Shown here piece after piece: positions 2,685 through 59,907 of a stretch of 64,000 nucleotides of DNA. The stretch comes from an uncultured Candidatus Binatia bacterium. Lineage in GTDB: Bacteria > Desulfobacterota > Binatia > UBA9968 > JAJDTQ01. Numbering within the stretch: position 1 is the stretch's first letter; each line of letters begins with the position of its first letter. The position numbers and the translations under genes were made by a program. Location of the stretch: positions 192,001 to 256,000 of the forward strand of contig OZ219754.1 in the NCBI GenBank assembly GCA_964291295.2, read 5' to 3'. Below the pieces are notes generated by a model, which was given only the letters and a program-made list of their open reading frames with translations, searched no databases and was not told the origin of the DNA.

Positions 2685-2809
2685 CAATCCCTCCTCGAAT
2701 CCGTCCTGTCCCTTCCTGTCCTGTCCTTCCCGTCCGTCCCTCTCCTGCCGCCAGCCTCAAGACTCCAATGCCTACACGGCCTCCAATGCCCACACGCATT
2801 GGCTGCTCA

Positions 2810-2837
2810 AATCTATCGTTCCTGACCGTATTGTCAA
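2810..2837 (-). promoter_or_regulatory. Putative sigma70 promoter of the left autotransporter copy (TTGACA-16 bp-TAGATT) with upstream T-rich UP-like tract
   Basis: The -35 hexamer and most of the -10 are conserved with the paralogous promoter at 52324-52351 while the spacer has diverged. A-tracts lie at 2838-2866 on the + strand. Confidence 0.6.
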
Positions 2838-3021
2838 GAAAACAACCGAAAAAACAGAAAAAAAAATCGGGAACAGGGCGGCGGTGGCCATCCCGCGCAT
2901 GGAAGCCATCATGCCTGCCTGCAAAGGCCCTCACATGCAATCGGGCAACGCCTGTCACCCCGGAATTCCACCGCCATCGGCACCGCTTCCCGGCTGGATA
3001 TCTGCACCGCGGATGCGGCGA

Positions 3022-14865: not shown

Positions 14866-14990
14866 TCGTTCCCCTCGCTTTCGTATGGTCTTCGTATGGC
14901 ATGTCCCGCCCGCCAGCCGGGTCCGGCGCCGCAAACGGGCACGGGCGGTTTTGCGAATCCGGCCCGGCCTCCCTGTCCGCGGAACCGGCG

Positions 14991-15995: not shown

Positions 15996-16042
15996 GCCTC
16001 CCCCGTTCCGGCCGGTCGCGCGGGAGCGAACCGACCGCGCCG

Positions 16043-16564
16043 TCATCGCTCCGGAAGAACGGCTGTCCGGATGCCCGCCGGGCGGTCATGAGCCTGCCGG
16101 GCGGTCATGAAGTTGATCAGTTTCATGCTCATGACCACGTCGCCGTCCTGGTTCAGGGCCTCGAGCAGCGAACGCACGATGCCGCGGCCGGGCTTCGAAG
16201 CGGACCGCCGGCTCTCCAGCACCGTGACCCGCACCGTCAACCCGTCGCCCGGACGCACCGGCTTGTGCCAGCGCAGCTCGTCCACGCCCGGCGAGCCGAG
16301 GTTGGCCACCGCCGAGAGATAGTTGTCGGAACAGACCCGCATCATGGCGGCGGCCGTGTGCCAGCCGCTGGCGATGAGACCCTTGTAGAGGGTCTCCTTC
16401 GCCAGTTCGGGATCGACATGATACGGCTGCGGCACGAAACGCTTGCCGAAGTCGATGATCTCGGCCTCGGCAAGGCTCACCGGGCCGAACTCGCATACCG
16501 AGCCGACCACGTAATCCTCGAAGTAACGTTCCTCTCTGGGGACGGTGAATCCGGGCTGTTGCAT
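16043..16564 (-). CDS. MaoC family dehydratase
   Basis: RYFEDYVVG, PQPYHVDPE, GLIASGWHT, LGSPGVDELRWHKPVRPGD. The usual 'DPQ' reads VPQ. Confidence 0.85.
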   Translation of the reverse strand: MQQPGFTVPREERYFEDYVVGSVCEFGPVSLAEAEIIDFGKRFVPQPYHVDPELAKETLYKGLIASGWHTAAAMMRVCSDNYLSAVANLGSPGVDELRWHKPVRPGDGLTVRVTVLESRRSASKPGRGIVRSLLEALNQDGDVVMSMKLINFMTARQAHDRPAGIRTAVLPER

Positions 16565-16759
16565 CGCCTTCACGAGTACAATGAACGCTCGTGCGCTGCA
16601 ACTTGTCGTCCGGTGCACTCTCCGTTGCCGGCACCGCCCTGGCAGCGAGCGTGTCCCGGCCAGCCCTGAACCACGATGCGGTCCGGAAGGTGCCGACAAC
16701 ACGAGGACCGATGGATGCCGTTGACGAGGATGAGGGGCCGCCGGCCCCACGAAACGGCT

Positions 16760-16925
16760 GGCGGTGGAGAGGTTCAGACGGATGTCACCACCACGGGATC
16801 GTCATCTTCGGCGACGTCAACCCCGAAACTTTGCTCGATGTCACCGCCCTGGAAACCGTGGGCGTGGAGATGTATCCCGTTATCCAGCGACTGAAACGGT
16901 CTCCAACCGTGCGGACAAGCGCCAG
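16760..16925 (+). pseudogene. C-terminal remnant of a clan AA aspartic-protease-like small protein
   Basis: Frame reads GIVIFGDVNPETLLDVTALETVGVEMYPVIQRLKRSP, close to the recalled family ending 'VIFG...EPLLGVTALE..G.EVDP..Q.LK'. No N-terminal half with the DTG motif is visible. Confidence 0.45.
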
Positions 16926-16993
16926 GGCAAATGTCGGGCTTCCGCCCGTTGAAGCAGAGCGCATGGAGAGGACACCTCACCGCGACTCAGGAC

Positions 16994-17537
16994 ATGACGA
17001 AACCTTACAACCCACTGGATTACCGGAATCTGGCACAAAACGTTGTGCGCGCTCTCCTGGAGAGAACGGACAGCGAGATCCCGCCACAGGAGCCGTTCGT
17101 CGGCTCTGGCGTTTATGCCCTTTACTATACGGGACCGCTTCCATACTACGCTTTCCTGGCTTCGGAGGATCTCGGCACTCCGATCTACGTGGGCAAGGCG
17201 GTACCGTCGGGCAGTAGAAAAGGAAGTTACACGGAGGTACCGAAGGTAGACGGTTCCTTGTACCGACGGCTATGTGAGCATGCCAAGTCCATCGACCAGG
17301 CAGAGAACTTGCGACTGGAAGAGTTTCGCTGTCGTTTCCTTGTTGTCGAAACCGTCTGGATCACACTTGCGGAGCGATTCCTGATCAATCACTTCAAGCC
17401 TGTGTGGAATACCGTGATCGACGGCTTTGGCAACCTCGTCCCGGGTCGTGGTGCATCCCGGACGACCGTGGGCAAATGCTCTCGACGCCGAGGAAAGCGA
17501 AGCCGAGATCATCGCGTCGCTCACTACAAGAGACTGA
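16994..17537 (+). pseudogene. Eco29kI-family GIY-YIG restriction endonuclease, frameshifted near the 3' end
   Basis: YNPLD, GSGVYALYYTG, PIYVGKAVP, LYRRLCEH, LAERFLI...PVWN..IDGFGN. The family C-terminus VVHPGRPWA continues in another frame (17448 to TGA at 17537). Confidence 0.8.
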
Positions 17538-17538
17538 G

Positions 17539-19113
17539 TCAAGCGACTCGGAGTTCCACCGCGGTTTCGTAGAGCCTCACCGTCTGCTTGACCTCACCGA
17601 CCCGCACCGATGAGTTGACGATACTGTTGCCCGTGCGTTTCTTGCGCACTTCGTGCAAGGCTACGACATCAAAACCTTCAAGTTCCGCGATCTCCGCGAA
17701 CACCCGGTCGGTCTGGAACTCGATACCCTGGAGAATGTTATTGCCGATAACGACCACGACCGTGCCGCCTGGGCGCATGAGCGGTCGAGTGATGGCACAG
17801 AATCTCTGGCAATCGTTGAAGTAGGCTGCGGCATAGTTGGCCCACCCCGGACCTCCATAGGCACCCTTTTCAGGATAGCGCGCCCTGAGGAGTTCAAGCT
17901 GTTCGGCCAGATCGGGAAGAGTGGGCTTCAGGACGATTTCAGGACCCGACCGTACGGTTTGCCAGAACTGGCCGAAACTCTGACGTTCGATGTTTTTGAG
18001 TTCGTTGGGCGCTTCCACCATTCCCAACCAGAACAAATGCGGCCGCGTGTTCCTGACGTAGTGGTAGTTGTTGAGGTAAGGCGGCGACGTGACCAGCACG
18101 TCAATGCTCTGTTCGTCGGTAAGAGCGGCGTGCTCCAGGTAGGAAAGGGGTTGGACCGTTGCCCGCGGCTTGACGCGGCGCTTGTCAAGACAAGCCTGGA
18201 ACTCTGCGACGTCCTGGTACATCTCCCACAACTTGCGCCGAACCGTTCCGAAGACGTCCGCATGCTTGATGTCTGGCTTGCCGGCACCGCTCCGCGTACC
18301 AAGGCTGGGTTCATAGGAGTAATTGGAGAAACCCACCATCACGGAACCCAACGCCACGCGGAGGAGGTCCCGGACCCAGTCGGTCGGTTCCCCGCCGATA
18401 AAGTCCAGACAAGCCAACGTCTGGCGTTCCACGGCTTCGCTGAAGAAAGGGACCCGGCTTCGAAAGCCCTTCGGTTGTACCGTGGCGGGTGCCTTGCGCA
18501 ACCAAGCTTCGGCGTCGCCGTACTCCTCGAAGCGCGCAATGGTCGTCTCCAGTGTGGAAAGATCGTACTCAGCGACACCCGCCTTTACTTTGCACGCCAG
18601 CGCCGGATACGGGTTGATTTCGTAACCGACGGCATCGTCGCCTTGCTTCAGCGCTTCGACCAGCGTCGTACCGACTCCTGCAAAGGGATCGAGCACGCGC
18701 ATCCTCCGGCTCTTCTTGCGGACAGCATCAAGTACGCCGGCCACGAAAGAGCCGGAAAAGCCGGCGACCCACGGCACCCAACGATGAAGCGCGCGGTGTT
18801 GGTTCTCCGAGAATCCAGTGTCGCGAAAGCCGGAGGAAGGGAGGAGTTCGAATTGTGCACCCGCTTCGGAGATGAAGCCGCTGCCGCAGACAGAGCCGTC
18901 GGCAACTTCGGTTGTCGGCGCATCGGAGTTCTCTCCGGCCAACCAAGTCTCCAGTCGAGCGCGCACGAAACGCCATTCGCGCCCAACTTTCCTGGATGGC
19001 ACCCGTCGCGCGCGGGCCATCTCTCCAAGGGTCTTCTCGCTTACTCGAATCAGCTTCGCCGCCTCTGCCAAGGTCAGAATCTCATGACTGCTCGCATGCG
19101 CGCTTGTCTTCAT
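17539..19113 (-). CDS. Amino (probably N4-cytosine) DNA methyltransferase with N-terminal excisionase-like HTH
   Basis: HTH LTLAEAAKLIRVSEKTL...KVGREWRF; HRW...AGFS; motif I DPFAGVGTT precedes motif IV TSPPY (alpha order). Convergent with the endonuclease. Confidence 0.88.
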   Translation of the reverse strand: MKTSAHASSHEILTLAEAAKLIRVSEKTLGEMARARRVPSRKVGREWRFVRARLETWLAGENSDAPTTEVADGSVCGSGFISEAGAQFELLPSSGFRDTGFSENQHRALHRWVPWVAGFSGSFVAGVLDAVRKKSRRMRVLDPFAGVGTTLVEALKQGDDAVGYEINPYPALACKVKAGVAEYDLSTLETTIARFEEYGDAEAWLRKAPATVQPKGFRSRVPFFSEAVERQTLACLDFIGGEPTDWVRDLLRVALGSVMVGFSNYSYEPSLGTRSGAGKPDIKHADVFGTVRRKLWEMYQDVAEFQACLDKRRVKPRATVQPLSYLEHAALTDEQSIDVLVTSPPYLNNYHYVRNTRPHLFWLGMVEAPNELKNIERQSFGQFWQTVRSGPEIVLKPTLPDLAEQLELLRARYPEKGAYGGPGWANYAAAYFNDCQRFCAITRPLMRPGGTVVVVIGNNILQGIEFQTDRVFAEIAELEGFDVVALHEVRKKRTGNSIVNSSVRVGEVKQTVRLYETAVELRVA

Positions 19114-42774: not shown

Positions 42775-45700
42775 TTACCAACTCATGGACGCGCGCAGCA
42801 TCAGTTCGTATTCGGCGTTGTCGTCGTCGTACACCTGCCGGTGCGCACCTTCCAGACTCAGTGCAGCCGACGATCCGAGGAGTTGCAGACGACTTCCCGC
42901 CCGGTAGCTCCGCCCACCGTCCTCCGAAAGCGTAACCGCGGCATAGGGCGTCACCAGACCTCGCCCGCTCAGCGCCGACAGCCCATAGCCTGCCTCGGTC
43001 ACGAGATGTCCCCCCACCTCATCCTGACCACCGTCCGCCACCGCCAAGGACCCCTTCCGCAGAGACGATCCAGCCCCGCCATGGACAGCACCCAGTCCCG
43101 GCGCGATGCTCAGAGACAGGCCGAGCCCGTCCCCGCCCGAATCCTTCCGAATCAGGCCGCCAATGCCCCATTCTTTCGTGTCGCCGCCGTGACCCGTCAA
43201 CGCCCGCCCCCGGACTTCCAGGGTCAGACCCAACGCCGTGTCCCGGTAGCTCAACGCGCTTCCGATCTCCACTCCGGTTCCGGTCGCACCGTCGCCACCG
43301 TCGCTGCGGAGACCCACCTCCACCGAAGGCGTCAGGATGGCGCTCTCCGCCATTGCATGTGCATGGCGCGCTTCGAGAGAGGCTCGCAGCCGACGGACAT
43401 CGACACTGATGGACGCGAGCGTGTCCGAGCCATCCATCTTGGCGCGAGCGAACGAACCGTCGGCCCTGATATGAACAGTTGTCCTGCCGCCCTCAACTAC
43501 GTCGTCGCTCGAAAACACCTCTCCCTCGACGCCTGCCGCCCCGGAAGTCTGCGTCAGATCGCCGGTCTGCAGACCTTTCTGGTCATCCTTGATGTCGACG
43601 TCGCCACGGCCATACCCTGCCAGTGCCCACAGTTCGACCCCGGGCGACAGGATCAGGCCCGCATACGGGTGAACGGAGGTCAGAGTCGTCTCGTAGGTTC
43701 CCGTATTCGCCGAGCCTTTCCCTTCCTTGTAGTCGAAACGGCCGCGCGACAGCGACATCGACAACCCCGCGAGCAGGTTGCGGCTCAGCCGCATGTCGGC
43801 GCCGAGATGGCCACTCGTCATCCTGCCATCCCAGGAGACGCCGCTGTCCGCGCCGGACAAATCGCGCCAGTCGCCACTGCCCCAGAACACCGCGCCGCCC
43901 GGCACGGTTGAAGAACCGCCGTCCGCCGCGTTGAGTGGAAGCACGAAGGAAGAGCCCGCAAGCAGGCGGGCCGCTTCGAACCCATCTTCCTCCAGTTGAG
44001 GGCCGTGTGTCTCGAACGCCTGGAGCCACCCGCCCGCGCCACCGATGTTGAGCGCCTTCGTCTCCGGCGACCCGTCCAGACCGGTGCCGACCCGAGCGCG
44101 CACCGCATCCACCGTACTCGCCAGACGTGCCCTCGTGGTTTCCGGCAACAGCACCTTGACGATCTTGTCCACACTGAACGGCGGGTACACCCCTGGGTCG
44201 CTGCGCCCCAGCAACGCCTGACCCACCTCGTCCACCTGCGCCTTCTCCGCCGCACCCAGTATCTTCGCCGCACCCGAACCCGGATAGTGCGCGCAGTACG
44301 CACTCGACGCATCCGCCGTGTCGCCGTCCCCCGCAGCCACACGCATCAGCCGGCAGTCCAGAGACTCCCACCACGCACCCACGCTCGCAAAGCCCCCTTC
44401 CCCGTATATCGCCGCCGCCGCCGCGTTCACCAGCCGCTTCGTCTCAGCATCCAGACCCGCGTACATTTTCTTCGCCGCCGCCGCCTCCGCCGGCGTCGCA
44501 TCATCCCCATGCAGCGCCGCCACCATCTCCTCCGGCGTCAGCACGTTCCACCAGCGCTTCGCCATGGCATTGTCCGCCGGGTACACCCCTGGGTCGCTGC
44601 GCCCCAGCAACGCCTGACCCACCTCGTCCACCTGCGCCTTCTCCGCCGCACCCAGTATCTTCGCCGCGCCCGAACCCGGATAGTGCGTGCAGTACGCACT
44701 CGACGCATCCGCCGTGTCGCCGTCCCCCGCAGCCACACGCATCAGCCGGCAGTCCAGAGACTCCCACCACGCACCCACGCTCGCAAAGCCCCCTTCCCCG
44801 TATATCGCCGCCGCCGCCGCGTTCACCAGCCGCTTCGTCTCAGCATCCAGACCCGCGTACATTTTCTTCGCCGCCGCCGCCTCCGCCGGCGTCGCATCAT
44901 CCCCATGCAGCGCCGCCACCATCTCCTCCGGCGTCAGCACGTTCCACCAGCGCTTCGCCATGGCATTGTCCGCCGGGTACACCCCTGGGTCGCTGCGCCC
45001 CAGCAACGCCTGACCCACCTCGTCCACCTGCGCCTTCTCCGCCGCACCCAGTATCTTCGCCGCGCCCGAACCCGGATAGTGCGTGCAGTACGCACTCGAC
45101 GCATCCGCCGTGTCGCCGTCCCCCGCAGCCACACGCATCAGCCGGCAGTCCAGAGACTCCCACCACGCACCCACGCTCGCAAAGCCCCCTTCCCCGTATA
45201 TCGCCGCCGCCGCCGCGTTCACCAGCCGCTTCGTCTCACCGTCCAGACCCGCGTACATTTTCTTCGCCGCCGCCGCCTCCGCCGGCGTCGCATCATCCCC
45301 ATGCAGCGCCGCCACCATCTCCTCCGGCGTCAGCACGTTCCACCAGCGCTTCGCCATCGCATTGTCCGCCGGGTACACCCCTGGGTCGCTGCGCCCCAGC
45401 AGCGCCTGACCCACCTCGTCCACCTGCGCCTTCTCCGCCGCACCCAGTATCTTCGCCGCGCCCGAACCCGGATAGTGCGTGCAGTACGCACTCGACGCAT
45501 CCGCCGTGTCGCCGTCCCCCGCAGCCACACGCATCAGCCGGCAGTCCAGAGACTCCCACCACGCACCCACGCTCGCAAAGCCCCCTTCCCCGTATATCGC
45601 CGCCGCCGCCGCGTTCACCAGCCGCTTCGTCTCACCGTCCAGACCCGCGTACATTTTCTTCGCCGCCGCCGCCTCCGCCGGCGTCGCATCATCCCCATGC

Positions 45701-45954
45701 AGCGCCGCCACCATCTCCTCCGGCGTCAGCACGTTCCACCAGCGCTTCGCCATGGCATTGTCGGGAGTCTGCGCCCCCGCCGTAGCCGCAAGAGTCATGA
45801 CAACGGTGAAAACGAACACGACAGGCGCCGCAAAGGCCCGCAGCCCGAACCGGGGAAACCACGCGGGCGGTCGTGCAACCCATTCGTGATGGTTGTCGTG
45901 AAGGTTCAAACCTTTCCGTACTGAAGCAACATCCATTGAAACCAACCCCCACAT
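42775..45954 (-). CDS. Autotransporter with four 132-aa tandem passenger repeats
   Basis: Signal peptide ending ATAGA. C-terminal beta-barrel (FWGSGDWRDLSG, SVHPYAG, PSVEVGLRSDGGD, terminal W). AGGAG RBS before ATG 45954; alternative start at 45978. Confidence 0.88.
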   Translation of the reverse strand: MWGLVSMDVASVRKGLNLHDNHHEWVARPPAWFPRFGLRAFAAPVVFVFTVVMTLAATAGAQTPDNAMAKRWWNVLTPEEMVAALHGDDATPAEAAAAKKMYAGLDGETKRLVNAAAAAIYGEGGFASVGAWWESLDCRLMRVAAGDGDTADASSAYCTHYPGSGAAKILGAAEKAQVDEVGQALLGRSDPGVYPADNAMAKRWWNVLTPEEMVAALHGDDATPAEAAAAKKMYAGLDGETKRLVNAAAAAIYGEGGFASVGAWWESLDCRLMRVAAGDGDTADASSAYCTHYPGSGAAKILGAAEKAQVDEVGQALLGRSDPGVYPADNAMAKRWWNVLTPEEMVAALHGDDATPAEAAAAKKMYAGLDAETKRLVNAAAAAIYGEGGFASVGAWWESLDCRLMRVAAGDGDTADASSAYCTHYPGSGAAKILGAAEKAQVDEVGQALLGRSDPGVYPADNAMAKRWWNVLTPEEMVAALHGDDATPAEAAAAKKMYAGLDAETKRLVNAAAAAIYGEGGFASVGAWWESLDCRLMRVAAGDGDTADASSAYCAHYPGSGAAKILGAAEKAQVDEVGQALLGRSDPGVYPPFSVDKIVKVLLPETTRARLASTVDAVRARVGTGLDGSPETKALNIGGAGGWLQAFETHGPQLEEDGFEAARLLAGSSFVLPLNAADGGSSTVPGGAVFWGSGDWRDLSGADSGVSWDGRMTSGHLGADMRLSRNLLAGLSMSLSRGRFDYKEGKGSANTGTYETTLTSVHPYAGLILSPGVELWALAGYGRGDVDIKDDQKGLQTGDLTQTSGAAGVEGEVFSSDDVVEGGRTTVHIRADGSFARAKMDGSDTLASISVDVRRLRASLEARHAHAMAESAILTPSVEVGLRSDGGDGATGTGVEIGSALSYRDTALGLTLEVRGRALTGHGGDTKEWGIGGLIRKDSGGDGLGLSLSIAPGLGAVHGGAGSSLRKGSLAVADGGQDEVGGHLVTEAGYGLSALSGRGLVTPYAAVTLSEDGGRSYRAGSRLQLLGSSAALSLEGAHRQVYDDDNAEYELMLRASMSW
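44179..45762 (-). repeat. Four tandem 396-bp near-identical repeats
   Basis: Unit DNAMAKRWW...RSDPGVYP(A/P). Few differences: DGET in units 1-2 vs DAET in units 3-4, and CAH in unit 4 vs CTH. Confidence 0.97.
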
Positions 45955-46254
45955 CGTATGCTCCTGGTCACTGTTCATTGTCCGTTTCCGCCGTCATCCG
46001 CTTTCAGAGACGTTCAAGTATCGTCATTGTGGTCATGTATAGCGGCGGCAAACCTACAATGAAGCGGTCTCCGCGTCAATGGAGCTTTCGAGCGGGGCCG
46101 TGTCGCGGGGCACCCGGACCGTGCGCTGGTGGCGGACCGCGTCAGGATCACACGGTTCGCATGTGCCTGCCCGCGGTCAGGCTTCGCCTGGCCCGAGCCA
46201 TCGTGAAAGAGGGTCCGTCCGCAACACCGGAAACGACACGGCCCAAAACGACAC

Positions 46255-46312: not shown

Positions 46313-46388
<76 letters not shown>

Positions 46389-50325: not shown

Positions 50326-52074
50326 TCAGAGCTCGTCCAGCTCGTCCGACACCTGCTGGCGGCGGTACATCTGCGCGTACAGCCCGCCGGCCCGCAGCAG
50401 CGACTCGTGGTCGCCGCGTTCGACGATCCGGCCCTCATCCAGCACCAGGATCTCGTCGGCTTCCTTGATGACCGCCATGCGATGGGAGATGAGGATACAG
50501 GTCCTGCCCTTGAGCACACTCTCGAAGCCGTGGAGGATGCGCCGCTCGGTCTGCGAGTCCACGCTCGACAGACAGTCGTCCAGGATCAGGCATTCCGGGT
50601 CGGCCAGGATGGCGCGGGCCAGGGTCGCCCGCTGCTTCTGGCCGCCGGAGAGGGCGATGCCGCGCTCCCCCACGCGGGTGTCGAGGCCGTCCGGAAAGAC
50701 CTCCACCTCGCTTTCGAGATCGGCCGCGTCCAGGACCCGGCGCACCTCCCGCTCGCTGGCGCCGGCGTCGCCGAACTTCAGGTTTTCCTGGATGGAGGTG
50801 GAGAACAGGAACGGGTCCTGCGGCGCGTAGCCGATGGCGCCGCGCAACTCTTCCAGGGACAGCGCCCGGATATCGACGCCGCCCATGCGGATGGTGCCCG
50901 CGGTCACGTCGTGGAGCCGCGGGATCAGATGCGTCAACGTGCTCTTGCCCGCACCCGTACGTCCGACGATGGCCACCTTGCGGCCCGGCGGCACCTCGAA
51001 GCTCACCTCCTTCAGCACCGCCTCCCCATGGTCGGCGCCGTTGTAGGCGAACGACACCCTGTCGAACGCGATGCCCCGCTCCTTGTCACGCAGCGGCACG
51101 GGATGCTCGGGGTCGGCGATGGCCGGCTCCACCACAAAGATCTCCTCGAGCCGCTCCATGGCGGCGCGACCGCGCTCGAGCAGCGAGATCATCCAGCCAA
51201 AGGCGGCCATGGGCCAGGCGAGCACGTTCAGATACAGGATGAACGCCACCAGGTCGGCAACGCCGCTCTGCTCATGGATGATGAGCCAGCCGCCATACCA
51301 CAGCACCACCAGCACGGTGAGACCGTGCAACGCCACCATGATGGGGTTGATCATCCCACGGCAGCGGGCCAGGTCCAGGTTGCGCACCTGGTACTCGTCG
51401 TTCATCCCGGTGAACCCGGCGGTCTGGGGCACCGCCTGCACGTACGCCTTGACCACATGCATGCCGCTCAGGTTCTCCTGCACATGGGCGCTCATGCGCG
51501 ACATCTGCCGCTGGACCCGCAGCGACGCCCGCTGGATCCGCCCGCGGAACTGCAGGAACACCAGTGCCAGGAGCGTCAGGCACGCGCCCACCGCCAGCGT
51601 CAGACTCGGGTTCATGGCGAACATGAACACCGCCGCGTAGACGAAGTAGAGGGGCGTGTTCACCAGGTTGAGAACACCGGGACCCAGCAGCATGCGCACG
51701 GCATTGATGTCGTTGACGGCCCGGGACATGAGGTCGCCGGTCTTCTGTGACTGGTAATAGGCGAGAGGCAACTTCTCCAGGTGGGCGAAAAGGTCATTGC
51801 GCAGGTCGTACTCGACGTTCCGGCCGGCGTTGAAGATGATGGACCGGGAGAACGCGCGCAGCAGCCCGCCGCCCACCGCAGCCACCGCGATCCGCAGGAT
51901 GTAGCCGCCCAACTCGGACCCGGGGTCGCCGCGCTCGATGACATCAATGGCGCCCCGGACCCACCACGGCACCACCATGAGCAGGCTCGTGGTGCCGATC
52001 AGGCACACCCCGCCTGCCAGATAACGCCGCCGGTAGCGCCAGAGATAATCGGTCAACCGTGCAATGCCGGCCAT
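50326..52074 (-). CDS. ABC exporter, fused permease/ATPase (heterodimer subunit A)
   Basis: TMD plus GRTGAGKST, LSGGQKQR, degenerate Walker B LDDCLSSVD, ISHR. Confidence 0.92.
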   Translation of the reverse strand: MAGIARLTDYLWRYRRRYLAGGVCLIGTTSLLMVVPWWVRGAIDVIERGDPGSELGGYILRIAVAAVGGGLLRAFSRSIIFNAGRNVEYDLRNDLFAHLEKLPLAYYQSQKTGDLMSRAVNDINAVRMLLGPGVLNLVNTPLYFVYAAVFMFAMNPSLTLAVGACLTLLALVFLQFRGRIQRASLRVQRQMSRMSAHVQENLSGMHVVKAYVQAVPQTAGFTGMNDEYQVRNLDLARCRGMINPIMVALHGLTVLVVLWYGGWLIIHEQSGVADLVAFILYLNVLAWPMAAFGWMISLLERGRAAMERLEEIFVVEPAIADPEHPVPLRDKERGIAFDRVSFAYNGADHGEAVLKEVSFEVPPGRKVAIVGRTGAGKSTLTHLIPRLHDVTAGTIRMGGVDIRALSLEELRGAIGYAPQDPFLFSTSIQENLKFGDAGASEREVRRVLDAADLESEVEVFPDGLDTRVGERGIALSGGQKQRATLARAILADPECLILDDCLSSVDSQTERRILHGFESVLKGRTCILISHRMAVIKEADEILVLDEGRIVERGDHESLLRAGGLYAQMYRRQQVSDELDEL

Positions 52075-52323
52075 GACGTGAAGGAACGCGATGCTCCAGG
52101 TGTTTCAGGGAGTTGAACGGCCTTGGGGAGGCGGACAAACCCGAAGGCGCTTCCATTCAATTTAACCAGGAACCCGGCGAATTTCCAACGGCGTGGCAGG
52201 TGCGGGATCACAAGACGCGGGACTGAAGGGGGAAGTGGTTGCTTGCCACCCTCTTTCAGTTCTGAACGGGAATTTTCTGCTGTTTCGGGCCACCTCTTTT
52301 CGGTCATTTTTTCGGTTATTTTC

Positions 52324-52351
52324 TTGACAAACCGGTGGGAAAGGATAGTCT
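52324..52351 (+). promoter_or_regulatory. Putative sigma70 promoter (TTGACA-16 bp-TAGTCT) with T-rich UP-like tract
   Basis: Conserved in position with the paralogous promoter at 2810-2837. T-tracts at 52296-52322. Confidence 0.6.
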
Positions 52352-52478
52352 TGGGAACCCAATGCGTGTGAGCATTGGAGGCCGTGTAGGCATTGGAGTC
52401 TTGAGGCCGGGGGTTGGAGAGGGACGGAGGGGGAAGGACAGGCTGGGGAAGGGACAGGACGGATTCGAGGAGGGATTG

Positions 52479-55400
52479 ATGATGGCACGTTTGAGAGGGA
52501 TTGCTCCCGCCGCGGGCGCTTTGGCATCGAGGAACAAGGCATCGGGGAACAAGGAGGGTTGGATGGGATTGGGGAAGGGATTGCGAGGGATCATGCGGGG
52601 GTTTCTGGGGTTGTTGGCGGGAGTGGTGATGGTGGGGGGGATGGGGGAGACGGCTGGGGGGCAGGTGCTTCCGGAGTTGAGTTTTACGGGGGCGTTTCCG
52701 GTGAGTGGGGATCCGGGCACGAATGAGTGTCCGCGCGGGGAGGAGTTGGAGTCGAGCACGGACAAGGTGTGGGAAGGGGGATGGCTGGCGCTGCGAGTGG
52801 AGCGAGCGGCGACGCGGCGGGAGGCGGCGCGGATCGAGGTGGATTTCGAGATAGTGGGGGGATCGCAGGCGGGGAGGGCGGATTTGGGGACAGGGGGGAA
52901 CCTGCGGAACGTGGGGATCTTGTTTTATGAGAGCGTGATCACGGCGCCGACGCGGCATTGTCATTATGTGCAGATATTGAAGGACAAGAAGCTGGAGGGG
53001 AACGAGCGGTTGACGCTGCGGCTGAGGCCGAAGGGGTCGGTGTATACGGTGAAGGCGGGGAAGGACCGTCGTGACATCGAGATCGGGGAGGCGGGAGCGG
53101 GGATACGGTTGCGGTACCAGGATTTGGGGGTATTGGGAGGCGGGACGACGGGGCGTGGGTTCGTATTGAGGCTGGAGGCGGGGGTGGCGAGTGGAGCGGG
53201 GAACGCGTGTACGTTCGAGCGGGACCGTTCGTTTTCGCGGACGGTGAAGGTAGGGTGGCGAGTTTGGGACGGAGGGCGAGGGGATCTTCGTGGGGCGAGT
53301 TTGGGGGATTTCAATTTGCCGACGCGGGTGACGTTCAGGAGCGGGGTGGCGGTGGTGGAGGGTTCGGCGAGGGCGGATGGGGACCGGGAGTCGGAGGACT
53401 TCTGGATGGAGTTGGACTACAAGTATCGGGATCGAGTGAACCATCCGTATCCGGTGGTGCACTGCGAGTCGGCGGCGGATGCGCGGCGGTGGGGTCTGAC
53501 CCGGAGTTTTTTTGGGCCTGTGGGAGTGATCGCGCCGGTGCCGGGGGCGCCGGCGAAGCCTTTGGGTCTGACGGCGGGGGCGGTGGAGGATCGGGTGAAT
53601 TTGAGTTGGAGGGCGGCGACGGACGGGACGATCAAGGGTTGGAGGTACCGTCTGCGGGCGAAGGGATTGAGGAGTTGGGGGAGTGGGGTGGAGATGAGGG
53701 GGAGCGTGGCAGGGACGCGGGCGCACGCGGTGGACGGGTCGAGTTGGTGGGATGGGATAGCGACGGAGTTCCAGGTTCAATCGTACAACGACGGGGGCAG
53801 CAGTCCGTGGTCGGACACGGCGGTGGCGGTGGCGGTCAACCGGGACCGTCCGGCGCTGGTGATCAGCAAGGGACGGGTGAGTGTGGAGGAAGGGGAGACG
53901 GCGAGTTGGACGGTGGCGTTGAATGGCGGGGTTGGTGGGAGTGTGACGCTGGCGAGCAGCGCCAGTGGCACGGCGCGGGTGAGTCCGGCGGTGCTGACCT
54001 TCACGAGCGAGAACGCGCGGGTGCCGCAGACGGTGCGGGTGACGGGAGTGACGGCGGGGGAAGCGGAGGTGAGGCATGCGTTCACGCTGCCGGGAGCGAC
54101 GGCGGCGGCGGTGACGGATGCGGGGCGGGTGGCGGTGACGGTGACGGCGGCGGCGGTGCCGCTGCGTGCGCCGGCGAAGCCGACGGATTTGAGTGCGAAG
54201 GCGGTGGAAGACGAGGTGGGGCTGAGTTGGAAGGCGGCGACGGACGCGACGATCCAGGGGTGGCGGTATCGGTACCGGATGTTCGACTACTGGTATTCGG
54301 CGACGGACTTTCCGGGGAAGACGACGGCTTCGACGCGAAGCGGGAGCGTGTCGTTTGCGGCGTTTCTAGAGGGGATCACGCTGGAGTTCCAGGTACAGTC
54401 GTACAACGAGGCGGGGAGCAGTCCGTGGTCGAACACGGCGAAGACGGCGGTGGTCAACAGCGACCGTCCGGCGTTGTTGATCAGCGAGAGACGGGTGAGT
54501 GTGGAGGAAGGGGAGACGGCGAGTTGGACGGTGGCGGTGAACGGGACGTTTGACGGGAGTGTGACGCTGGTGAGCAGCGACAGCGGCAAGGCGCGGGTGA
54601 GCCCGTCGGTGCTGTACTTTGCCCACGCGACGGCCCAGACGCCGCAGACGGTGACGGTGACGGGAGTGACGGCGGGGGAGGCGGAGGTGAGCCACGCCTT
54701 CAGGGTGGATGGAGCATCGGTGCCGGTGGCTTCGGGTGCGAAGGATCGGGTGGCGGTGACGGTGACGGCGGCGGCGGTGCCGCTGCGTGCGCCGGCGAAG
54801 CCGACGGATTTGAGTGCGAAGGCGGTGGAAGACGAGGTGGGGCTGAGTTGGAAGGCGGCGACGGACGCGACGATCCAGGGGTGGCGGTATCGGTACCGGA
54901 TGTTCGACTACTGGTATTCGGCGACGGACTTTCCGGGGAAGACGACGGCTTCGACGCGAAGCGGGAGCGTGTCGTTTGCGGCGTTTCTAGAGGGGATCAC
55001 GCTGGAGTTCCAGGTACAGTCGTACAACGAGGCGGGGAGCAGTCCGTGGTCGAACACGGCGAAGACGGCGGTGGTCAACAGCGACCGTCCGGCGTTGTTG
55101 ATCAGCGAGAGACGGGTGAGTGTGGAGGAAGGGGAGACGGCGAGTTGGACGGTGGCGGTGAACGGGACGTTTGACGGGAGTGTGACGCTGGTGAGCAGCG
55201 ACAGCGGCAAGGCGCGGGTAAGCCCGTCGGTGCTGTACTTTGCCCACGCGACGGCCCAGACGCCGCAGACGGTGACGGTGACGGGAGTGACGGCGGGGGA
55301 GGCGGAGGTGAGCCACGCCTTCAGGGTGGATGGAGCATCGGTGCCGGTGGCTTCGGGTGCGAAGGATCGGGTGGCGGTGACGGTGACGGCGGCTCCGGTG

Positions 55401-58400
55401 CCGGAAACGCCTTCGGCGCCGAAGGGGTTTCGAGCGCGGCCCGGGGATGAGGCGGTGACGCTGTCGTGGGCGGCATCGGGGGATGGGTCGATCCGCAAGT
55501 ACGAGGTGAAATGGCGTCTTGCGGGTCCGGGGCAGGGTTGGGGGTCGTGGGCGGCGATAGCGGGTTCGGGGGCGAATACGACGTCTCATACGGTAACGGG
55601 GCTGACCAACGGCCAGAAGTACATTTTCCGGGTTCGGGCGGTGAATGCGGGAGGGGAGGGGAAGTCTTCGCGAGCCCGCGGGGCGACGCCGATGGGCGGG
55701 GTGACGGTGGCGGTGGAGGACGCCATCGTGGTGGAGGGAGACGCGGGGCGGCGGGTGATGGAGTTTGATGTGACCCTGAGCGGGGAGCCGGTGGCGGAGG
55801 TGAAGGTGCGGGTGGCGGCGGTGGCCGGAGCGGGGAGCACGGCGGGAGCGGGGCGGGACTTTGTGCCGTTGAGCAAGACGCTGTTTTTCGATGCGTACGG
55901 GCGCGGGAGCGCGCTGATGCAGACGGTGCGTGTGGAGGTGATGGGGGACGAGGTGGCGGAGGGGGAGGAGACCTTTCTGCTGCGGCTGGACAATCTGGTG
56001 ACGGGGGACAGCCGCGTGGCGCTGGCCGGGGGCGGGGAGAAGGTCACGGCCACGGGCACCATCACGGACGATGACGCGGCGCCGGTGCTGGCGGCGTTGG
56101 CGGATGTGACGGCGAAGGTGGGTCAGGAGGTGTCGGTCACGGCCACGGCCACCGATGCGGACGGGGACACGCTCCGCTACGTCTGGAGCCGCAAGACGGG
56201 GGAGACGACGCCGGCGTTGCCGGAAGGCACGGACCTGAACGCGGCCCGGCTGGTCTTCACGCCGACCCGGGCCGGCACGATGACGATGACGGTAACCGCG
56301 GATGACGGCCACGGCAATACGGACACCGAAGAGGTGGTGGTCACGGTGGCGGCGCCCGCTCCCACGAGAATCCCGATCACCCTGAGGGTGGAGCGACGGA
56401 ACGACAAGCTGCATCTGTTCTGGACCGCGCCGGAGGATCCGGAGCGCACCGGCTGGCAGCTCCGGTACCGGTCGTTCAATGGTTGGGCACACGAGTATTT
56501 CAGGGAATGGCACGATTGGGTGACCATCGCGGATCCGTCCGCCAGAAGCCACACCCTGTCATCGGACCGATGTCACGAAGGTCAGGAATTCGAACTCCGC
56601 GCCACGACGGATGCCGGCCCCAAGAAAGAAGTAGCGAGCGCCCGGCTGTCACCGTCGGCGGACTGGCTCGTATTCCCTATCGGGGGAGGCGGTGTTCGGA
56701 GTACCCAGGAGGGAGCCCAACTCTGGTTTACAGTCATACTCAGGTCAAGCGTAATCAGGCGCATGTCGGGTCCGGTAAGAGTGATTCCCGTGCCCTACGA
56801 AGTGCTGCCAAAGGATCATCAAAGGGCTTCTTACTTCCGCGACCCGGGCCATTTTGAAAGACCTACCGACAAGGTGACCGTTCATCCGTATGGACCGAAT
56901 TATCTCGAGTTCACCCCTAAATCGGACTGGGTCAGGGCGGACGGGTCTTTTCGTTACCGTGGTCAGGTATATCGTATAAAGATGGAAGCGGATGAGGACA
57001 CTCGGGACGACTTGATAGGCATTGGGTATCGACTGGAGGGGGAGGGCCTCAATGCGTGCGATACGAAATACGGGCTTATCAGGGAAAGATTCCTGGTCCG
57101 CGACATGACGCCTACCCTGACGCTCGAAGCGAATCCCGCCGAGGTTGACAAGCACCACCATCATCACAAGCATCACAAGCACTATCGTTCTCACGGTCAC
57201 CACATTTATCACTACCACCATCATCGCGGTCACCACCATCATCGTACTGCCCATCATGGCAGTGTGGCGCACCCTGACGGTGTGAGCGAGGGGACACCGA
57301 TCACCCTGACCGTCCGTTCGGACAAGCCGGTATCGGGCGTTCTTTCGGTGAGCCTGACGCTGTCCGATCGGGATTCGAGCGGCTTCTCGGCGGCGGACAT
57401 CCCGGGGGCGCTGACGCAGACATTCAACGTGAATTTCGGCGGCGGCAAGACCGGCATCATCACGATTCCCACCAGCGTGGACGCCGACGCATCGGAAGGC
57501 GTCGAGAAGTACACGGTCACGCTGAACGATGCCACCGGCTACGCCATCGGCGAGGACGTGACGGTCCAGGGCAAGTTGCTGGATGGTCCTCCGGGCACGG
57601 GCTACCAGGGTTTCACCGGCGACACCGGTACGACGGTCGGTCTGACGCTGACGCCGACCGCGCTGACGATATCCGAAGGGGGGAGCGGCACCTACACGGT
57701 GGTGTTGAACGAGGCGCCGGCGGATACGGTCATGGTGGTGCCGGCGAGCGACAACACGGCGATTGCGACGGTTTCGGGACCGCTGACCTTCACCACCGCC
57801 AACTGGAACACCCCGCAGCCGGTGACGGTGACGGGTGTGCTGGACGATGACACGGAGGACGACACAGTGACGCTGAGCCACTCGGCCACGATGGGCAGCA
57901 ACATGAACGTGGATGTGACGGGCGGGAGCGTGACCGTGACGGTGGAGGACACGACGGGCATGCATACCAACAAGGTCCACCGAGCGGTGCTGCCGCAGGT
58001 GGCGGCGGCAATGGCGTCGCAGTCGCTGGGTGCGGTGGCGGGTCGCATCCAGGCGGTGGCGTCGGGGAAGGCGGGCCGGTCGCTGCGTTTCGGTGTGGCC
58101 CAGGCGGCGCCCGGTGCGAAGGAGGGGGCGGACGGCGTGTGGCTGGAGGAGCAGCGGAGAGCGTGGCTGCGCGGGATGCTGGAGGATGAGTGGGGTTCGG
58201 GCCGGGGTTCGAGCCTGCGCGGGATGTTGGAGAAGGAGGCGGAGAATCCGGACCTGCGGGACATGCTGGACGGGGCGGCGTTCGCGCTGCCGATGGGCGC
58301 ATCCGGGATGAGCGGGGGGAGCGTTCCGAGGGTGGCGGTGTGGGGTCGGGGTGACCTGGACTCGCTGTCGGGTTCGGAGGAGGACGTTTCGTGGGACGGG

Positions 58401-59456
58401 GAGGTGTGGTCGGCGCATCTGGGAACGGACGTGCGGCTGCGTGCGGACGTGCTGGCGGGGGTGGCGTTGTCGCATTCCCGCGGGGAGTTGGACACGGAGG
58501 TGGACGACGCGGGGGGCAACCGTGTGAAGGGAGTGTACAAGACGGAGTTGACGGCGGTGCATCCCTATGCGGCGTGGCTGAGCGGAGACGGATCGAACCT
58601 GTGGGCGAGCGCGGGGTACGGCGAGGGCGAGGTGGGCGTGGAGGAGGCGGAGCGGGCGGACCGTGAAGTGGAGATGAAGCTGACGAGTGCGGCGGCGGGC
58701 GGGCGCGGCGTGCTGAGCGAGGATGGGGAGTGGATTGCGGGCGGGGTGACGCGGGTGGCGGTACGTGGGGAGGGGTCGATGGTGCGGGTGAAGACGGAAG
58801 CGGGATCGGGTCTGGAGGCGCTTTCGGTGGATGCGAGCCGGCTGCGCCTGGCGCTGGAGGGATCGTATGAGCGTGCGCTGGAGGGGGGCGGGACGGTGAC
58901 GCCGGCGCTGGAGGTGGGGATGCGGCACGACAGCGGGGATGTGGAAAAAGGGGTGGGAGCGGAAGTGGGGGCGAGCGTGAGTTGGCGCGAGCCGGGGATG
59001 GGGCTGACGGTGGAGTTGCGCACGCGGGCGCTGGTGGCGCACGAGCGGGACCGGGAGGAATGGGGAGTGGGCGGCATGGTGCAACTGGATCCGGGATCGG
59101 ACGGGAGCGGGCTGTTCCTGACATTGACGCCGGCATACGGGGTCACCGCGACGGATCTGGATGGGCTGTTCGACCGCACGCCGGGCACGTCCTTTCTGAC
59201 GGGGAGCGGAGCAGAGGCGGAGAGTCAGCTGGATGCGGAGGTGGGCTACGGCTTCGGGGTGTTGGGGTCGGGGCCGATGGCGTTGCTGAGCCCGTATGTC
59301 GGGTTCACGCTGGCGGAGCGGGGTGAAGGGAGCGTGCGCGTGGGCACGCGCTACACCATCGCTCCGGCATTCGAGCTTTCGTTTGAGGGCGAGCGCAGCC
59401 AGGACGGCGGCTCCGCCGATAACAGCCTGGAGGTGCGGGTCTCGCTGCGCTGGTGA
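52479..59456 (+). CDS. Giant modular autotransporter adhesin (FN3, Ig/Calx-beta-like, PKD-like domains, His-rich insert, C-terminal beta-barrel)
   Basis: RBS then ATG at 52479, long signal peptide. FN3 'VTLSWAA...YIFRVRAVNAGGEG', Calx-beta-like 'VEGDAG...GDEVAEGEETF...GTITDDD', barrel ending VSLRW. Confidence 0.9.
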   Translation: MMARLRGIAPAAGALASRNKASGNKEGWMGLGKGLRGIMRGFLGLLAGVVMVGGMGETAGGQVLPELSFTGAFPVSGDPGTNECPRGEELESSTDKVWEGGWLALRVERAATRREAARIEVDFEIVGGSQAGRADLGTGGNLRNVGILFYESVITAPTRHCHYVQILKDKKLEGNERLTLRLRPKGSVYTVKAGKDRRDIEIGEAGAGIRLRYQDLGVLGGGTTGRGFVLRLEAGVASGAGNACTFERDRSFSRTVKVGWRVWDGGRGDLRGASLGDFNLPTRVTFRSGVAVVEGSARADGDRESEDFWMELDYKYRDRVNHPYPVVHCESAADARRWGLTRSFFGPVGVIAPVPGAPAKPLGLTAGAVEDRVNLSWRAATDGTIKGWRYRLRAKGLRSWGSGVEMRGSVAGTRAHAVDGSSWWDGIATEFQVQSYNDGGSSPWSDTAVAVAVNRDRPALVISKGRVSVEEGETASWTVALNGGVGGSVTLASSASGTARVSPAVLTFTSENARVPQTVRVTGVTAGEAEVRHAFTLPGATAAAVTDAGRVAVTVTAAAVPLRAPAKPTDLSAKAVEDEVGLSWKAATDATIQGWRYRYRMFDYWYSATDFPGKTTASTRSGSVSFAAFLEGITLEFQVQSYNEAGSSPWSNTAKTAVVNSDRPALLISERRVSVEEGETASWTVAVNGTFDGSVTLVSSDSGKARVSPSVLYFAHATAQTPQTVTVTGVTAGEAEVSHAFRVDGASVPVASGAKDRVAVTVTAAAVPLRAPAKPTDLSAKAVEDEVGLSWKAATDATIQGWRYRYRMFDYWYSATDFPGKTTASTRSGSVSFAAFLEGITLEFQVQSYNEAGSSPWSNTAKTAVVNSDRPALLISERRVSVEEGETASWTVAVNGTFDGSVTLVSSDSGKARVSPSVLYFAHATAQTPQTVTVTGVTAGEAEVSHAFRVDGASVPVASGAKDRVAVTVTAAPVPETPSAPKGFRARPGDEAVTLSWAASGDGSIRKYEVKWRLAGPGQGWGSWAAIAGSGANTTSHTVTGLTNGQKYIFRVRAVNAGGEGKSSRARGATPMGGVTVAVEDAIVVEGDAGRRVMEFDVTLSGEPVAEVKVRVAAVAGAGSTAGAGRDFVPLSKTLFFDAYGRGSALMQTVRVEVMGDEVAEGEETFLLRLDNLVTGDSRVALAGGGEKVTATGTITDDDAAPVLAALADVTAKVGQEVSVTATATDADGDTLRYVWSRKTGETTPALPEGTDLNAARLVFTPTRAGTMTMTVTADDGHGNTDTEEVVVTVAAPAPTRIPITLRVERRNDKLHLFWTAPEDPERTGWQLRYRSFNGWAHEYFREWHDWVTIADPSARSHTLSSDRCHEGQEFELRATTDAGPKKEVASARLSPSADWLVFPIGGGGVRSTQEGAQLWFTVILRSSVIRRMSGPVRVIPVPYEVLPKDHQRASYFRDPGHFERPTDKVTVHPYGPNYLEFTPKSDWVRADGSFRYRGQVYRIKMEADEDTRDDLIGIGYRLEGEGLNACDTKYGLIRERFLVRDMTPTLTLEANPAEVDKHHHHHKHHKHYRSHGHHIYHYHHHRGHHHHRTAHHGSVAHPDGVSEGTPITLTVRSDKPVSGVLSVSLTLSDRDSSGFSAADIPGALTQTFNVNFGGGKTGIITIPTSVDADASEGVEKYTVTLNDATGYAIGEDVTVQGKLLDGPPGTGYQGFTGDTGTTVGLTLTPTALTISEGGSGTYTVVLNEAPADTVMVVPASDNTAIATVSGPLTFTTANWNTPQPVTVTGVLDDDTEDDTVTLSHSATMGSNMNVDVTGGSVTVTVEDTTGMHTNKVHRAVLPQVAAAMASQSLGAVAGRIQAVASGKAGRSLRFGVAQAAPGAKEGADGVWLEEQRRAWLRGMLEDEWGSGRGSSLRGMLEKEAENPDLRDMLDGAAFALPMGASGMSGGSVPRVAVWGRGDLDSLSGSEEDVSWDGEVWSAHLGTDVRLRADVLAGVALSHSRGELDTEVDDAGGNRVKGVYKTELTAVHPYAAWLSGDGSNLWASAGYGEGEVGVEEAERADREVEMKLTSAAAGGRGVLSEDGEWIAGGVTRVAVRGEGSMVRVKTEAGSGLEALSVDASRLRLALEGSYERALEGGGTVTPALEVGMRHDSGDVEKGVGAEVGASVSWREPGMGLTVELRTRALVAHERDREEWGVGGMVQLDPGSDGSGLFLTLTPAYGVTATDLDGLFDRTPGTSFLTGSGAEAESQLDAEVGYGFGVLGSGPMALLSPYVGFTLAERGEGSVRVGTRYTIAPAFELSFEGERSQDGGSADNSLEVRVSLRW
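54126..55393 (+). repeat. Two tandem 621-bp (207-aa) near-identical repeats, preceded by a diverged copy (~53540-54125)
   Basis: CGGGTGGCGGTGACG recurs at 54126, 54747 and 55368. One synonymous difference seen (GTG/GTA near 55219). Confidence 0.95.
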
Positions 59457-59907
59457 CGCCCGCACCAGGGAAAGGCTTCGGGGGGAGGGCTTCGGGGATG
59501 GTTCCTCCGCGGGACCGTCCCCTGTCTCCGAAGTGCCGCATGCGCGCACCGGGAGACGACGAGACCGGCAACCCTCCGTTGTCGGCCTCGAATGGCCAGG
59601 ATCGGACGCGCCGGCTCCTGCGTCGGCCGCCGTACCTGCCATCCCCCGCCACACCTCCCCGGATCTCGTGTGCCGGCTGTCCTGCGGTGCTCGTGTCCGG
59701 TCATGGACCATCCCCTCGGTGACCGTCAACCTGGACCCCCTGTCCGCTGCCACATCTCGCTCCCCGACACCGGGGCCGCCTTGACAGGAGAACTGCGGAT
59801 TGGTACCTGTTCCTGCTGCCCGGGTTTCCTCGAACAAGGATCGTTACTCGGTTTTCCGGCGACGTCACCGGACGGTCTGCATGCCGCGAAAGGACTCACG
59901 CAAGAAC

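Follow-up and report, generated by a model that had tools for sequence, protein, structure and literature searches.

Three genes for autotransporter-type surface proteins in the genome of an uncultured Candidatus Binatia bacterium (GCA_964291295.2, contig OZ219754.1) contain long modules, shared between genes or tandemly repeated, whose coding strand is extremely rich in G and poor in C. The stretch analysed, called the window below, comprises 64,000 nucleotides (C1:192001–256000) of a 3.70-Mb, 66% GC assembly of three contigs (C1 to C3), labelled G000. Gene 3 is built of two arms, near-identical to those of gene 1, around a central cassette, and gene 2 holds a tandem array (Table 1). The skewed stretches are probably G-only repeats of the GRINS type, in which gene conversion keeps the modules near-identical and the silent sites, together with a duplicated, putatively untranslated leader, have been recoded to G. 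GRINS are defined as duplicated regions longer than 500 bp that are more than 80% identical and in which the mean absolute skew exceeds 0.15 for GC as well as for TA (PMC8256042).

Coding-strand skew at silent sites and in duplicated DNA

In 1-kb windows, GC skew amounts to +0.34 to +0.45 across 52001–56000 and +0.44 across 58001–59000, within gene 3 on the plus strand, and to -0.31/-0.32 across 44001–46000 and -0.34 to -0.45 across 1–3000, within genes 2 and 1 on the minus strand. The remaining 1-kb windows of the 64 kb all lie within +/-0.18, and the highest value in 600-bp windows is 0.53. The hand counts of a preliminary description of gene 3 and its surroundings were exact on recount (53641–53700, 34 G and 5 C; 58921–58980, 32 G and 8 C; minus strand of 44221–44280, 32 G and 9 C; 57421–57480, 16 G and 19 C; 5161–5220, 14 G and 24 C). 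Its view that the skew is tied to the coding strand of the gene, and not driven by the replichore, was also borne out, as the sign tracks gene direction and the replichore skew of the chromosome is only about +/-0.03–0.05 per 100 kb. Replichore bias was rejected as a cause because its magnitude is insufficient and the sign goes with the genes.

Skew at first, second and third codon positions (sk1, sk2 and sk3) was calculated for open reading frames (ORFs) of at least 100 aa, selected by a greedy GC-frame heuristic (GC content at third minus second positions, GC3-GC2, above 0.12) and not by a gene finder; the set comprises 2590 ORFs and covers 86% of the assembly. The 1912 ORFs of at least 250 aa have a mean sk3 of -0.071 (sd 0.111), and among them genes 3, 1 and 2 rank 1, 3 and 7, with whole-gene sk3 of 0.46, 0.41 and 0.36. 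Within the skewed parts sk3 rises to 0.5–0.7, or ~4–5 G per C at third positions (G809, C188, A67 and T143 in arm 1); sk2 is ~0 and sk1 is also 0.4–0.5.

Amino-acid composition alone, named in the preliminary description as an explanation that would refute its claim, fails to account for these values. From protein sequence and genome-average codon usage, a skew of 0.08 is expected for arm 1, 0.17 for arm 2 and 0.10 for the gene 2 array, against 0.40, 0.375 and 0.35 observed, so that composition contributes a fifth to under half and an excess at synonymous sites is confirmed. For Ala, Thr, Val and Pro, 84–91% of codons in the skewed parts are NNG and 4–8% NNC, compared with 36–56% NNC in the background. 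The fractions of GCG and GCC are 0.84 and 0.07 (genome background 0.38 and 0.49), those of ACG and ACC 0.91 and 0.08 (0.34 and 0.56), and those of GTG and GTC 0.88 and 0.04 (0.51 and 0.36); CTC is used for none of 120 Leu codons (background 0.28), and TTG and AGY codons are more frequent. The codons were originally said to end in G or T instead of C. This is strongly true of G and only modestly of T, the C:T ratio at Y-ending sites moving from ~80:20 to ~60:40, and the main shift is from C to G. GC3 of the skewed parts is 0.80–0.86, the same as that of the genome.

The effect is not one of codons only, since it extends to the putative untranslated leader of genes 1 and 3 (52345–52478), which is purine-rich and contains G63, A30, C18 and T23. 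A GGAGG sequence, read by eye, lies 8 nt before the ATG at 52479 as a likely ribosome-binding site and is preceded in the leader by many GGA motifs. The leader may be a site of post-transcriptional control, for example by a binder of the CsrA type.

Skew begins at ~52300–52350, at the start of the shared block and within ~30 bp of a TTGACA hexamer at 52325, fades at ~56000, returns at ~58000 and stops at ~59300. Arm 1 is thus skewed from ~52335 to ~56000, with its last ~350 bp unskewed, and arm 2 consists of an unskewed margin, from 57282 to ~58000, and a skewed core (~58000–59300). The idea that skew is confined to shared or repeated modules therefore stands in one direction only: all strongly skewed DNA of the window is shared or repeated, but ~1.1 kb of shared DNA in gene 3 (~56000–56354 and 57282–58000) is unskewed. 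In 150-nt windows with a step of 30, as used for GRINS, mean GC skew is 0.39 in arm 1, 0.30 in arm 2 and 0.36 in the gene 2 array, compared with 0.09 in ordinary DNA and 0.03 in the cassette of gene 3, where sk3 is ~0 and GC3 is 0.62–0.78. The sk3 profile of gene 1 is a mosaic like that of gene 3. In gene 2 the skew (sk3 0.5–0.6, G-rich on the coding strand) is limited to the array and is absent from the leader, the first ~200 nt and the beta-domain. Across the C-terminal ~400 codons of gene 2 sk3 is ~0, and its beta-domain (42775–44178) is at most weakly skewed overall (0.18, with 0.09 expected from the amino-acid sequence). This supplies an internal control within one genome, as the gene 3 beta-domain is duplicated and skewed while the homologous domain of gene 2 is single-copy and unskewed at third positions.

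The association with duplication, proposed in the preliminary description, extends across the genome. By self-megablast (at least 80% identity over at least 200 bp), 7.9% of the chromosome is duplicated, whereas duplicated DNA makes up at least half of each of 37 among the 50 segments in which |skew| exceeds 0.25 (600-bp windows). Conversely, there are 104 duplicated regions of more than 500 bp; mean |GC skew| exceeds 0.15 in 45 of them, compared with 2.2 expected from 200 trials of length-matched single-copy placements (maximum 8), and it exceeds 0.30 in 6 (0.0 expected). Within single genes, repeated and unique parts have sk3 of 0.58 and 0.12 (gene 2), 0.53 and 0.11, 0.51 and -0.03, and 0.57 and 0.20. 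Six further genes of the genome (1777–1948 aa) have in common a C-terminal part that is 89–97% identical, with sk3 up to 0.67, and N-terminal halves that are 37–63% identical, with sk3 of ~-0.1. The sign of the skew is not fixed; over the repeated parts of 141 ORFs the mean sk3 is 0.00. Unrelated single-copy genes with the same skew, which by the preliminary description would in large number refute its claim, are encountered only in weak form: an ABC transporter, an SMC and a histidine-kinase-type gene have sk3 of 0.33–0.39 over parts of their length, and no single-copy gene of the genome comes near 0.6. The phenomenon is not specific to autotransporters, since other kinds of genes in the genome are also skewed.

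Two genes of tandem Ig-like repeats, ~10,700 and ~10,100 codons long (C1:2349243–2381378, plus strand; C1:3617677–3648015, minus strand), have a common skewed 3' end of 4.4 kb with sk3 of 0.41; the second gene reaches the contig end, which is probably a point where the assembly broke. A 748-aa coiled-coil protein gene (L035, C1:1515017–1517263) with ~5.5 copies of a perfect internal repeat, sk3 being 0.57 in the repeats and 0.20 outside, is a GRINS-like case unrelated to adhesins. Three duplicated RTX-repeat (HemolysinCabind) genes (C1:497573–502186, 663695–667105 and 699708–703280) have sk3 of -0.34 to -0.39 and first-position skew of ~+0.6, and two DDE transposase copies likewise have C-rich third positions (sk3 -0.31 and -0.32). 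On contig C2, the region 14801–18500 (L033) reaches a GC skew of -0.44 and contains small ORFs on alternating strands with sk3 of -0.62 to +0.84.

Arms, cassettes and related loci

The arms that genes 1 and 3 have in common flank different cassettes, and comparison with a related genome (OZ241844.1) bears on their history. The gene 3 cassette is 58% identical over 269 aa to that of an OZ241844.1 paralog (L065), whereas only 79 aa could be matched to gene 1. The arms, by contrast, are 95–99% identical within the source genome and only 56–65% identical between it and OZ241844.1. Since the cassette is nearest to one in the other genome and the arms are alike within a genome, the cassette types must be older than the split between the two genomes, with homogenisation of the arms taking place later in each. 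As far as can be read from sequence, this indicates concerted evolution of the arms of genes 1 and 3. The divergence profile also supports the link to gene conversion that had been suggested. Genes 1 and 3 differ at 3 positions in 52807–56354, a tract of ~3.5 kb, compared with 11.6% divergence in the first 250 bp, and in arm 2 divergence is 4.8–9.6% in the unskewed margin and 0–2.4% in the skewed core, with a Spearman rho between skew and divergence of -0.92 over 9 bins. In four short-read runs, contigs break at module boundaries and the pieces match the sequence with 0–2 differences; one well-supported short-read joint (57140 to 57282) is gene 1's own junction. The conserved arms could allow cassettes to be exchanged.

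A search for related loci with a single protein gave no match, and an alignment-based repeat of the search succeeded. By protein search and pattern scan, OZ241844.1 contains four paralogs. Three have an N-terminal arm of 98.7–99% identity, a variable middle and a C-terminal arm of 93–94% identity, with sk3 of 0.4–0.6 in the arms and ~0 in the middle; the fourth (L067) yielded only an 878-aa frame, with sk3 of 0.08. The flanking genes have a mean sk3 of -0.09. The modules are thus skewed alike in two families whose protein identity is only 54–65%. No match to the first ~350 residues of arm 1 turned up in 60 other genomes of the order, including 27 of the same genus; when the first 540 residues were searched against 61 genomes of the order, only weak matches, in the FN3 part, came from outside the source genome.

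Among 151 genomes of the class, 12 gave matches to the beta-domain. First-position skew is 0.24–0.47 in all 30 beta-domain loci and is therefore a property of the protein, whereas third-position skew varies. Each of 27 loci (all but L008, L012 and L023) was compared with the remaining fetched loci from its genome, which relates this variation to duplication. All seven loci with a fetched partner of ~90% identity or more (in G000, G029 and G073) have sk3 of 0.32–0.48, and the 20 without such a partner have sk3 of -0.07 to 0.30. Background sk3 in G029, G073 and G137 is -0.07 to -0.09. In G029, a block with ~90% identical copies at L009, L018 and L026 flips in sk3 from -0.53 to +0.5 within a few hundred codons, which matches the strand-switching described for classic GRINS. 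In three arbitrary 20-kb regions of G137 (L059–L061), one of 43 heuristic ORFs has sk3 of 0.51.

The proteins encoded by the three genes are ordinary modular autotransporter adhesins. Gene 3 contains an FN3-type tandem repeat, one more FN3 domain, Calx-beta and PKD/He_PIG domains and a C-terminal autotransporter-type beta-domain; Pfam matches are fn3 (E 1.1e-33), Calx-beta, K319L-like PKD and He_PIG. Its residues 1977–2373 share 38% identity (E 5e-66) with the PF03797 beta-domain found in gene 2, although no direct Pfam match to a beta-domain was found in gene 3 at E<=0.01 and no NCBIfam family matched the beta-domain of either gene. One homolog (P0008) bears a precomputed PF03797 label. By eye, a hydrophobic stretch follows a basic N-terminus in the translations, a putative signal peptide. 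The repeat units of arm 1 give self-matches at an offset of ~620 bp with 87% and 75% identity, and the repeated peptide is evident in the translation. Genes 1 and 3 are both full-length and have a common upstream leader; gene 1 occupies C1:186273–194687, and 52307–56354 aligns by blastn to C1:194854–190809. Between the arms, gene 3 has 927 bp and gene 1 ~2.36 kb of differing sequence. In the gene 3 cassette, a run at 57150–57245 encodes 32 residues that are mostly His, with more His on both sides, a segment that could bind metal. A tRNA-Asn(GTT) gene lies at 46313–46388 on the minus strand, ~335 bp upstream of the gene 2 start.

Table 1. Positions of the surface-protein genes and their modules in the window.
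Feature	Position	Strand	Description
Gene 1, part in the window, with second copy of arm 1	1–2854 (ORF 3–2687)	-	Full gene 2804 aa
Gene 2	42775–45978	-	1067-aa autotransporter, PF03797 (E 1.4e-7, 31.9 bits, cut-off 26)
Tandem array of gene 2	44182–45762 (1581 bp)	-	Period 396 bp, 4.0 copies, 99% matches (Tandem Repeats Finder)
Gene 3	52479–59456 (ATG start; open frame from GTG 52335)	+	2325-aa surface protein
Arm 1	52307–56354	+	4048-bp block, 98.9% identical to gene 1 (blastn), including promoter-proximal leader
FN3-containing tandem repeat	53532–55403	+	Three ~620-bp units inside arm 1
Central cassette of gene 3	56355–57281	+	Unskewed, no copy in gene 1
Arm 2	57282–59483	+	2202-bp block, 96.8% identical to gene 1 (blastn)

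Origin of the skew

Recent point substitutions erode G in the modules. Among polarised third-position changes, G gains and losses number 13 and 31 in the six paralogs of the source genome (68 events) and 12 and 29 in G029 (58 events, with L009 as outgroup), or 25 versus 60 combined (p = 2e-4), whereas C is balanced (35 versus 36). The paralogs of OZ241844.1 were not polarised, having too few arm differences. Since G is eroded by point changes and the skew is nevertheless kept in families whose silent sites should be saturated, the best fit is given by a restoring force acting like selection among copies. We infer a bias coupled to conversion that would restore the skew against mutational erosion. 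The form that we favour for such a bias is strand-specific. If the same strand always invades, G/C differences between copies would give G.G mispairs in one direction and C.C mispairs in the other, and if these were repaired unequally, variants bearing G would spread among the copies and those losing G would be erased. Taken by itself, this strand-specific version is tentative, and we place it somewhat below an even chance.

Several observations weigh against recoding coupled to conversion. Conversion is deduced from the sequence, with no conversion event directly observed, and singletons exhibit no visible G-ward mutagenesis, so that we infer the conversion bias as well. The net loss of G could be mere decay of the skew. 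Of the 50 skewed segments, 13 are single-copy, though all of these are at most 1 kb long. The tract 56057–56354 has 0 differences from gene 1, yet its skew is only 0.13–0.27, and in the shared block of G029 the upstream 300 codons have sk3 of -0.18 to -0.53. The agreement between skew and a near-identical partner in seven of seven loci comes from at most three loci per genome in genomes that are related, so that the loci are not independent. Finally, TA skew departs from GRINS: mean |TA| is 0.11 in arm 1, 0.14 in arm 2 and 0.12 in the gene 2 array, equal to the background of 0.12–0.14 and below the 0.15 of the definition, and the mean signed TA skew of the modules is -0.04 to -0.02. GC and TA skews are only weakly correlated (r of 0.36, 0.30 and 0.02, respectively), compared with 0.70 in GRINS (PMC8256042). 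The modules are for this reason filed as a G-only variant and not as members of GRINS.

The order of cause and effect may be the reverse, with the skew coming first as has been considered for the vls system of Borrelia. A G-rich non-template strand would be selected for being recombinogenic, through R-loops, G-clusters or low complexity; cassette exchange and changes in repeat number would be promoted in adhesins, and homogenisation would be a consequence of the skew. This is possible, though we regard it as unlikely. It fits the layout of two arms around a cassette, the skewed core of arm 2 being its most recently homogenised part, and the preservation of the pattern between diverged families. 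In work on vls, coding-strand skew is held to be important for conversion (PMC11499132), and the authors of the GRINS study propose that skewed regions convert more easily (PMC8256042). Selection favouring G-quadruplexes (G4), put forward in the preliminary description, is not supported by the data: relative to 300 synonymous-codon shuffles per region, arm 1 has 4 G4 motifs where 5.1 are expected, and G runs of at least 3 are slightly in excess (z 2.1 and 2.8) but runs of at least 5 are depleted (z -2.9 in both arms). Moreover, the homology of genes 1 and 3 ends in unskewed DNA, 350–700 bp outside the skew, and an array of silent cassettes is lacking; the only blastn match that the cassette of gene 3 has elsewhere in the genome is of 46 end bases, which recur in gene 1. 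A break-prone skewed copy would also be the recipient in conversion and hence be overwritten, the hotspot paradox. A more far-reaching proposal, which we likewise think unlikely to be correct, is that G-only skew is an active recombination device. G-rich, C-poor non-template arms would direct one-strand invasion and biased repair, and adhesin families of environmental bacteria would keep the arms and swap the cassettes, as a free-living counterpart of vls; such modules would make up their own purine/G-type class of GRINS, occurring in the surface-protein genes of more than one or two phyla.

Another possible source is mutation that differs between the strands during transcription. Under it, the non-template strand, exposed in transcription bubbles or R-loops, would lose C by deamination and the GC pressure of the genome would refill the sites with G. 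The onset of skew so close to the TTGACA hexamer, with the leader included, would suit this process, as would the excess of T over A at third positions. In the six-paralog family 13 of 280 C sites underwent C>T changes, compared with 5 of 599 G sites that underwent G>A changes (Fisher p 5e-4), and in arm 2 the C/T differences between genes 1 and 3 outnumber the A/G differences (24 versus 19) although C is rarer than G. In G029, however, there is no excess of C>T (6/164, against 13/342 for G>A). The skew is not transcript-wide, as the cassette is unskewed and so are the N-terminal halves of the six paralogs and, in gene 2, the beta-domain and the first ~200 nt. Third-position TA skew is the same in the cassette (0.27) as in the arms (0.26–0.36). 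Recent substitutions erode the skew and do not build it. Loss of cytosine from single-stranded DNA, another of the processes first suggested, does not suffice as sole cause, because GC3 has not changed and it is NNG, not NNT, that takes the place of NNC. Plain transcription level was rejected as a cause, the most highly expressed cluster (tuf, rpoB, rpoC, fusA and ribosomal-protein genes) having sk3 of only -0.09 to +0.21. Altogether, mutation of this kind is an improbable source of the skew.

Selection on mRNA or translation might favour codons that end in G, or an mRNA that resists Rho and folds weakly because it is poor in C, in the conserved parts of long secreted proteins. A single parameter favouring G and disfavouring C fits all three changes in codon use (G over A, T over C and, at four-fold sites, G far over C), the leader is likewise C-poor, and the pattern is conserved in the diverged family. 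Such selection is nonetheless highly unlikely, given that the homologous beta-domains of genes 3 and 2 differ within one genome, that sk3 is near 0 in the homologs of other genomes unless these are duplicated, and that unskewed stretches of at least 1.5 kb lie within the same mRNAs. The duplicated RTX-repeat and transposase genes have the opposite composition at third positions. Supply of tRNA was rejected as a cause, the gene set being symmetric, since each four-fold family has a single CNN, a single GNN and a single TNN tRNA gene (aragorn).

Recent import of the modules from a donor of such composition, followed by duplication and ongoing amelioration, would account for the net loss of G, for the absence of the start of arm 1 from the 60 other genomes of the order that were searched and for the stronger skew of the more identical, younger copies. 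We consider it very improbable. The modules are skewed in families so diverged that silent sites are expected to be saturated, and background sk3 in four sampled related genomes is -0.07 to -0.09. The arms have the GC3 of the genome, and it is the cassette that looks more foreign. To our knowledge, no donor with such codon usage has been described. The only strongly skewed contig, C3 (32,130 bp; L031/L032), has a strand-wide skew that does not follow the genes (mean -0.19) and carries no adhesin modules, and was rejected as a donor or parallel. Its plus-strand ORFs have sk3 of -0.31 to -0.73 (one short ORF +0.08) and its minus-strand ORFs -0.22 to +0.47, the five most G-rich having +0.25 to +0.47. 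C3 carries housekeeping genes (for MutS2, a XerC/D-type integrase, UvrA, NadE and AlaRS); as those with a match on C1 are only 31–55% identical to it and MutS2 has no match, the contig is probably mis-binned, a piece of another organism with very strong replication skew.

Relation to strand asymmetries, vls and GRINS

Replication and transcription produce an excess of G over C and of T over A on one strand, attributed to deamination of cytosine in single-stranded DNA. The skew of the modules is about 10 times the replichore skew of the chromosome, and it follows the modules and not replichores or whole transcripts, the most expressed cluster being unskewed.

Another likeness is to the vls cassettes of Borrelia, in which coding-strand GC skew averages 0.52, compared with 0.18 for the leading strand (PMC11499132). 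Both systems have a skew of about 0.5 on the coding strand of surface-protein DNA that undergoes or appears to undergo conversion (here 0.34–0.45 per kb, maximum 0.53), in both the skew goes with the coding direction, and neither has a conserved G4 arrangement. They differ in that the locus described here has neither a single expression site nor a contiguous array of promoterless silent cassettes, that its conserved arms and not its variable part carry the skew, and that the GC content of the arms is that of the genome. Moreover, vls belongs to a cultured, host-associated pathogen, whereas the present host is an uncultured bacterium known from a metagenome. The lgr genes of Protochlamydia (PMC2216083) were rejected as a parallel, with sk3 of ~-0.05 to -0.08.

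The preliminary description had taken the phenomenon to be undescribed, but it was published as GRINS in 2021 (PMC8256042), and the comparable skew of vls is also on record. No description of such skew in autotransporter genes was found in the literature searched, where the GRINS papers found concern polyketide synthases (PKS) or nonribosomal peptide synthetases (NRPS). GRINS occur in many phyla and gene families, are tied to gene conversion and have an unknown cause; their skew is strongest at third positions, with Gly, Val, Cys and Trp enriched and Pro, Thr, His and Gln depleted (PMC8256042). The modules of the window lie within the GRINS definition in length (4048, 2202 and 1581 bp), in identity (98.9% and 96.8% between genes 1 and 3, 99% among the four 396-bp units) and in mean GC skew. 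As in GRINS, the skew is strongest at third positions, the copies are near-identical within a genome and modestly similar to homologous genes elsewhere, some duplicated regions are unskewed, and there is an association with gene conversion, judging from the apparently homogenised copies. Six of the eight amino acids shift alike (Gly, Val and Trp up; Pro, His and Gln down), whereas for Thr and Cys the change is opposite to that in GRINS, with enrichment of Thr and depletion of Cys. The adhesin modules of the source genome are of one polarity only, with a G-rich coding strand, and their hosts are autotransporter and giant adhesin genes and not PKS, NRPS or transposase genes. GRINS are described as recent in each PKS (PMC8256042); here the skew persists across families that have diverged deeply at the protein level.

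The locus gives a clean G-only case of GRINS-type repeats outside secondary-metabolite genes. The pattern has outlasted deep divergence even though point mutation wears the skew down, which narrows the cause to something coupled to conversion. If this coupling is causal, it bears on how giant adhesin families of bacteria stay both uniform and variable, and also on the interpretation of codon-usage outliers, which are usually read as signs of horizontal transfer.

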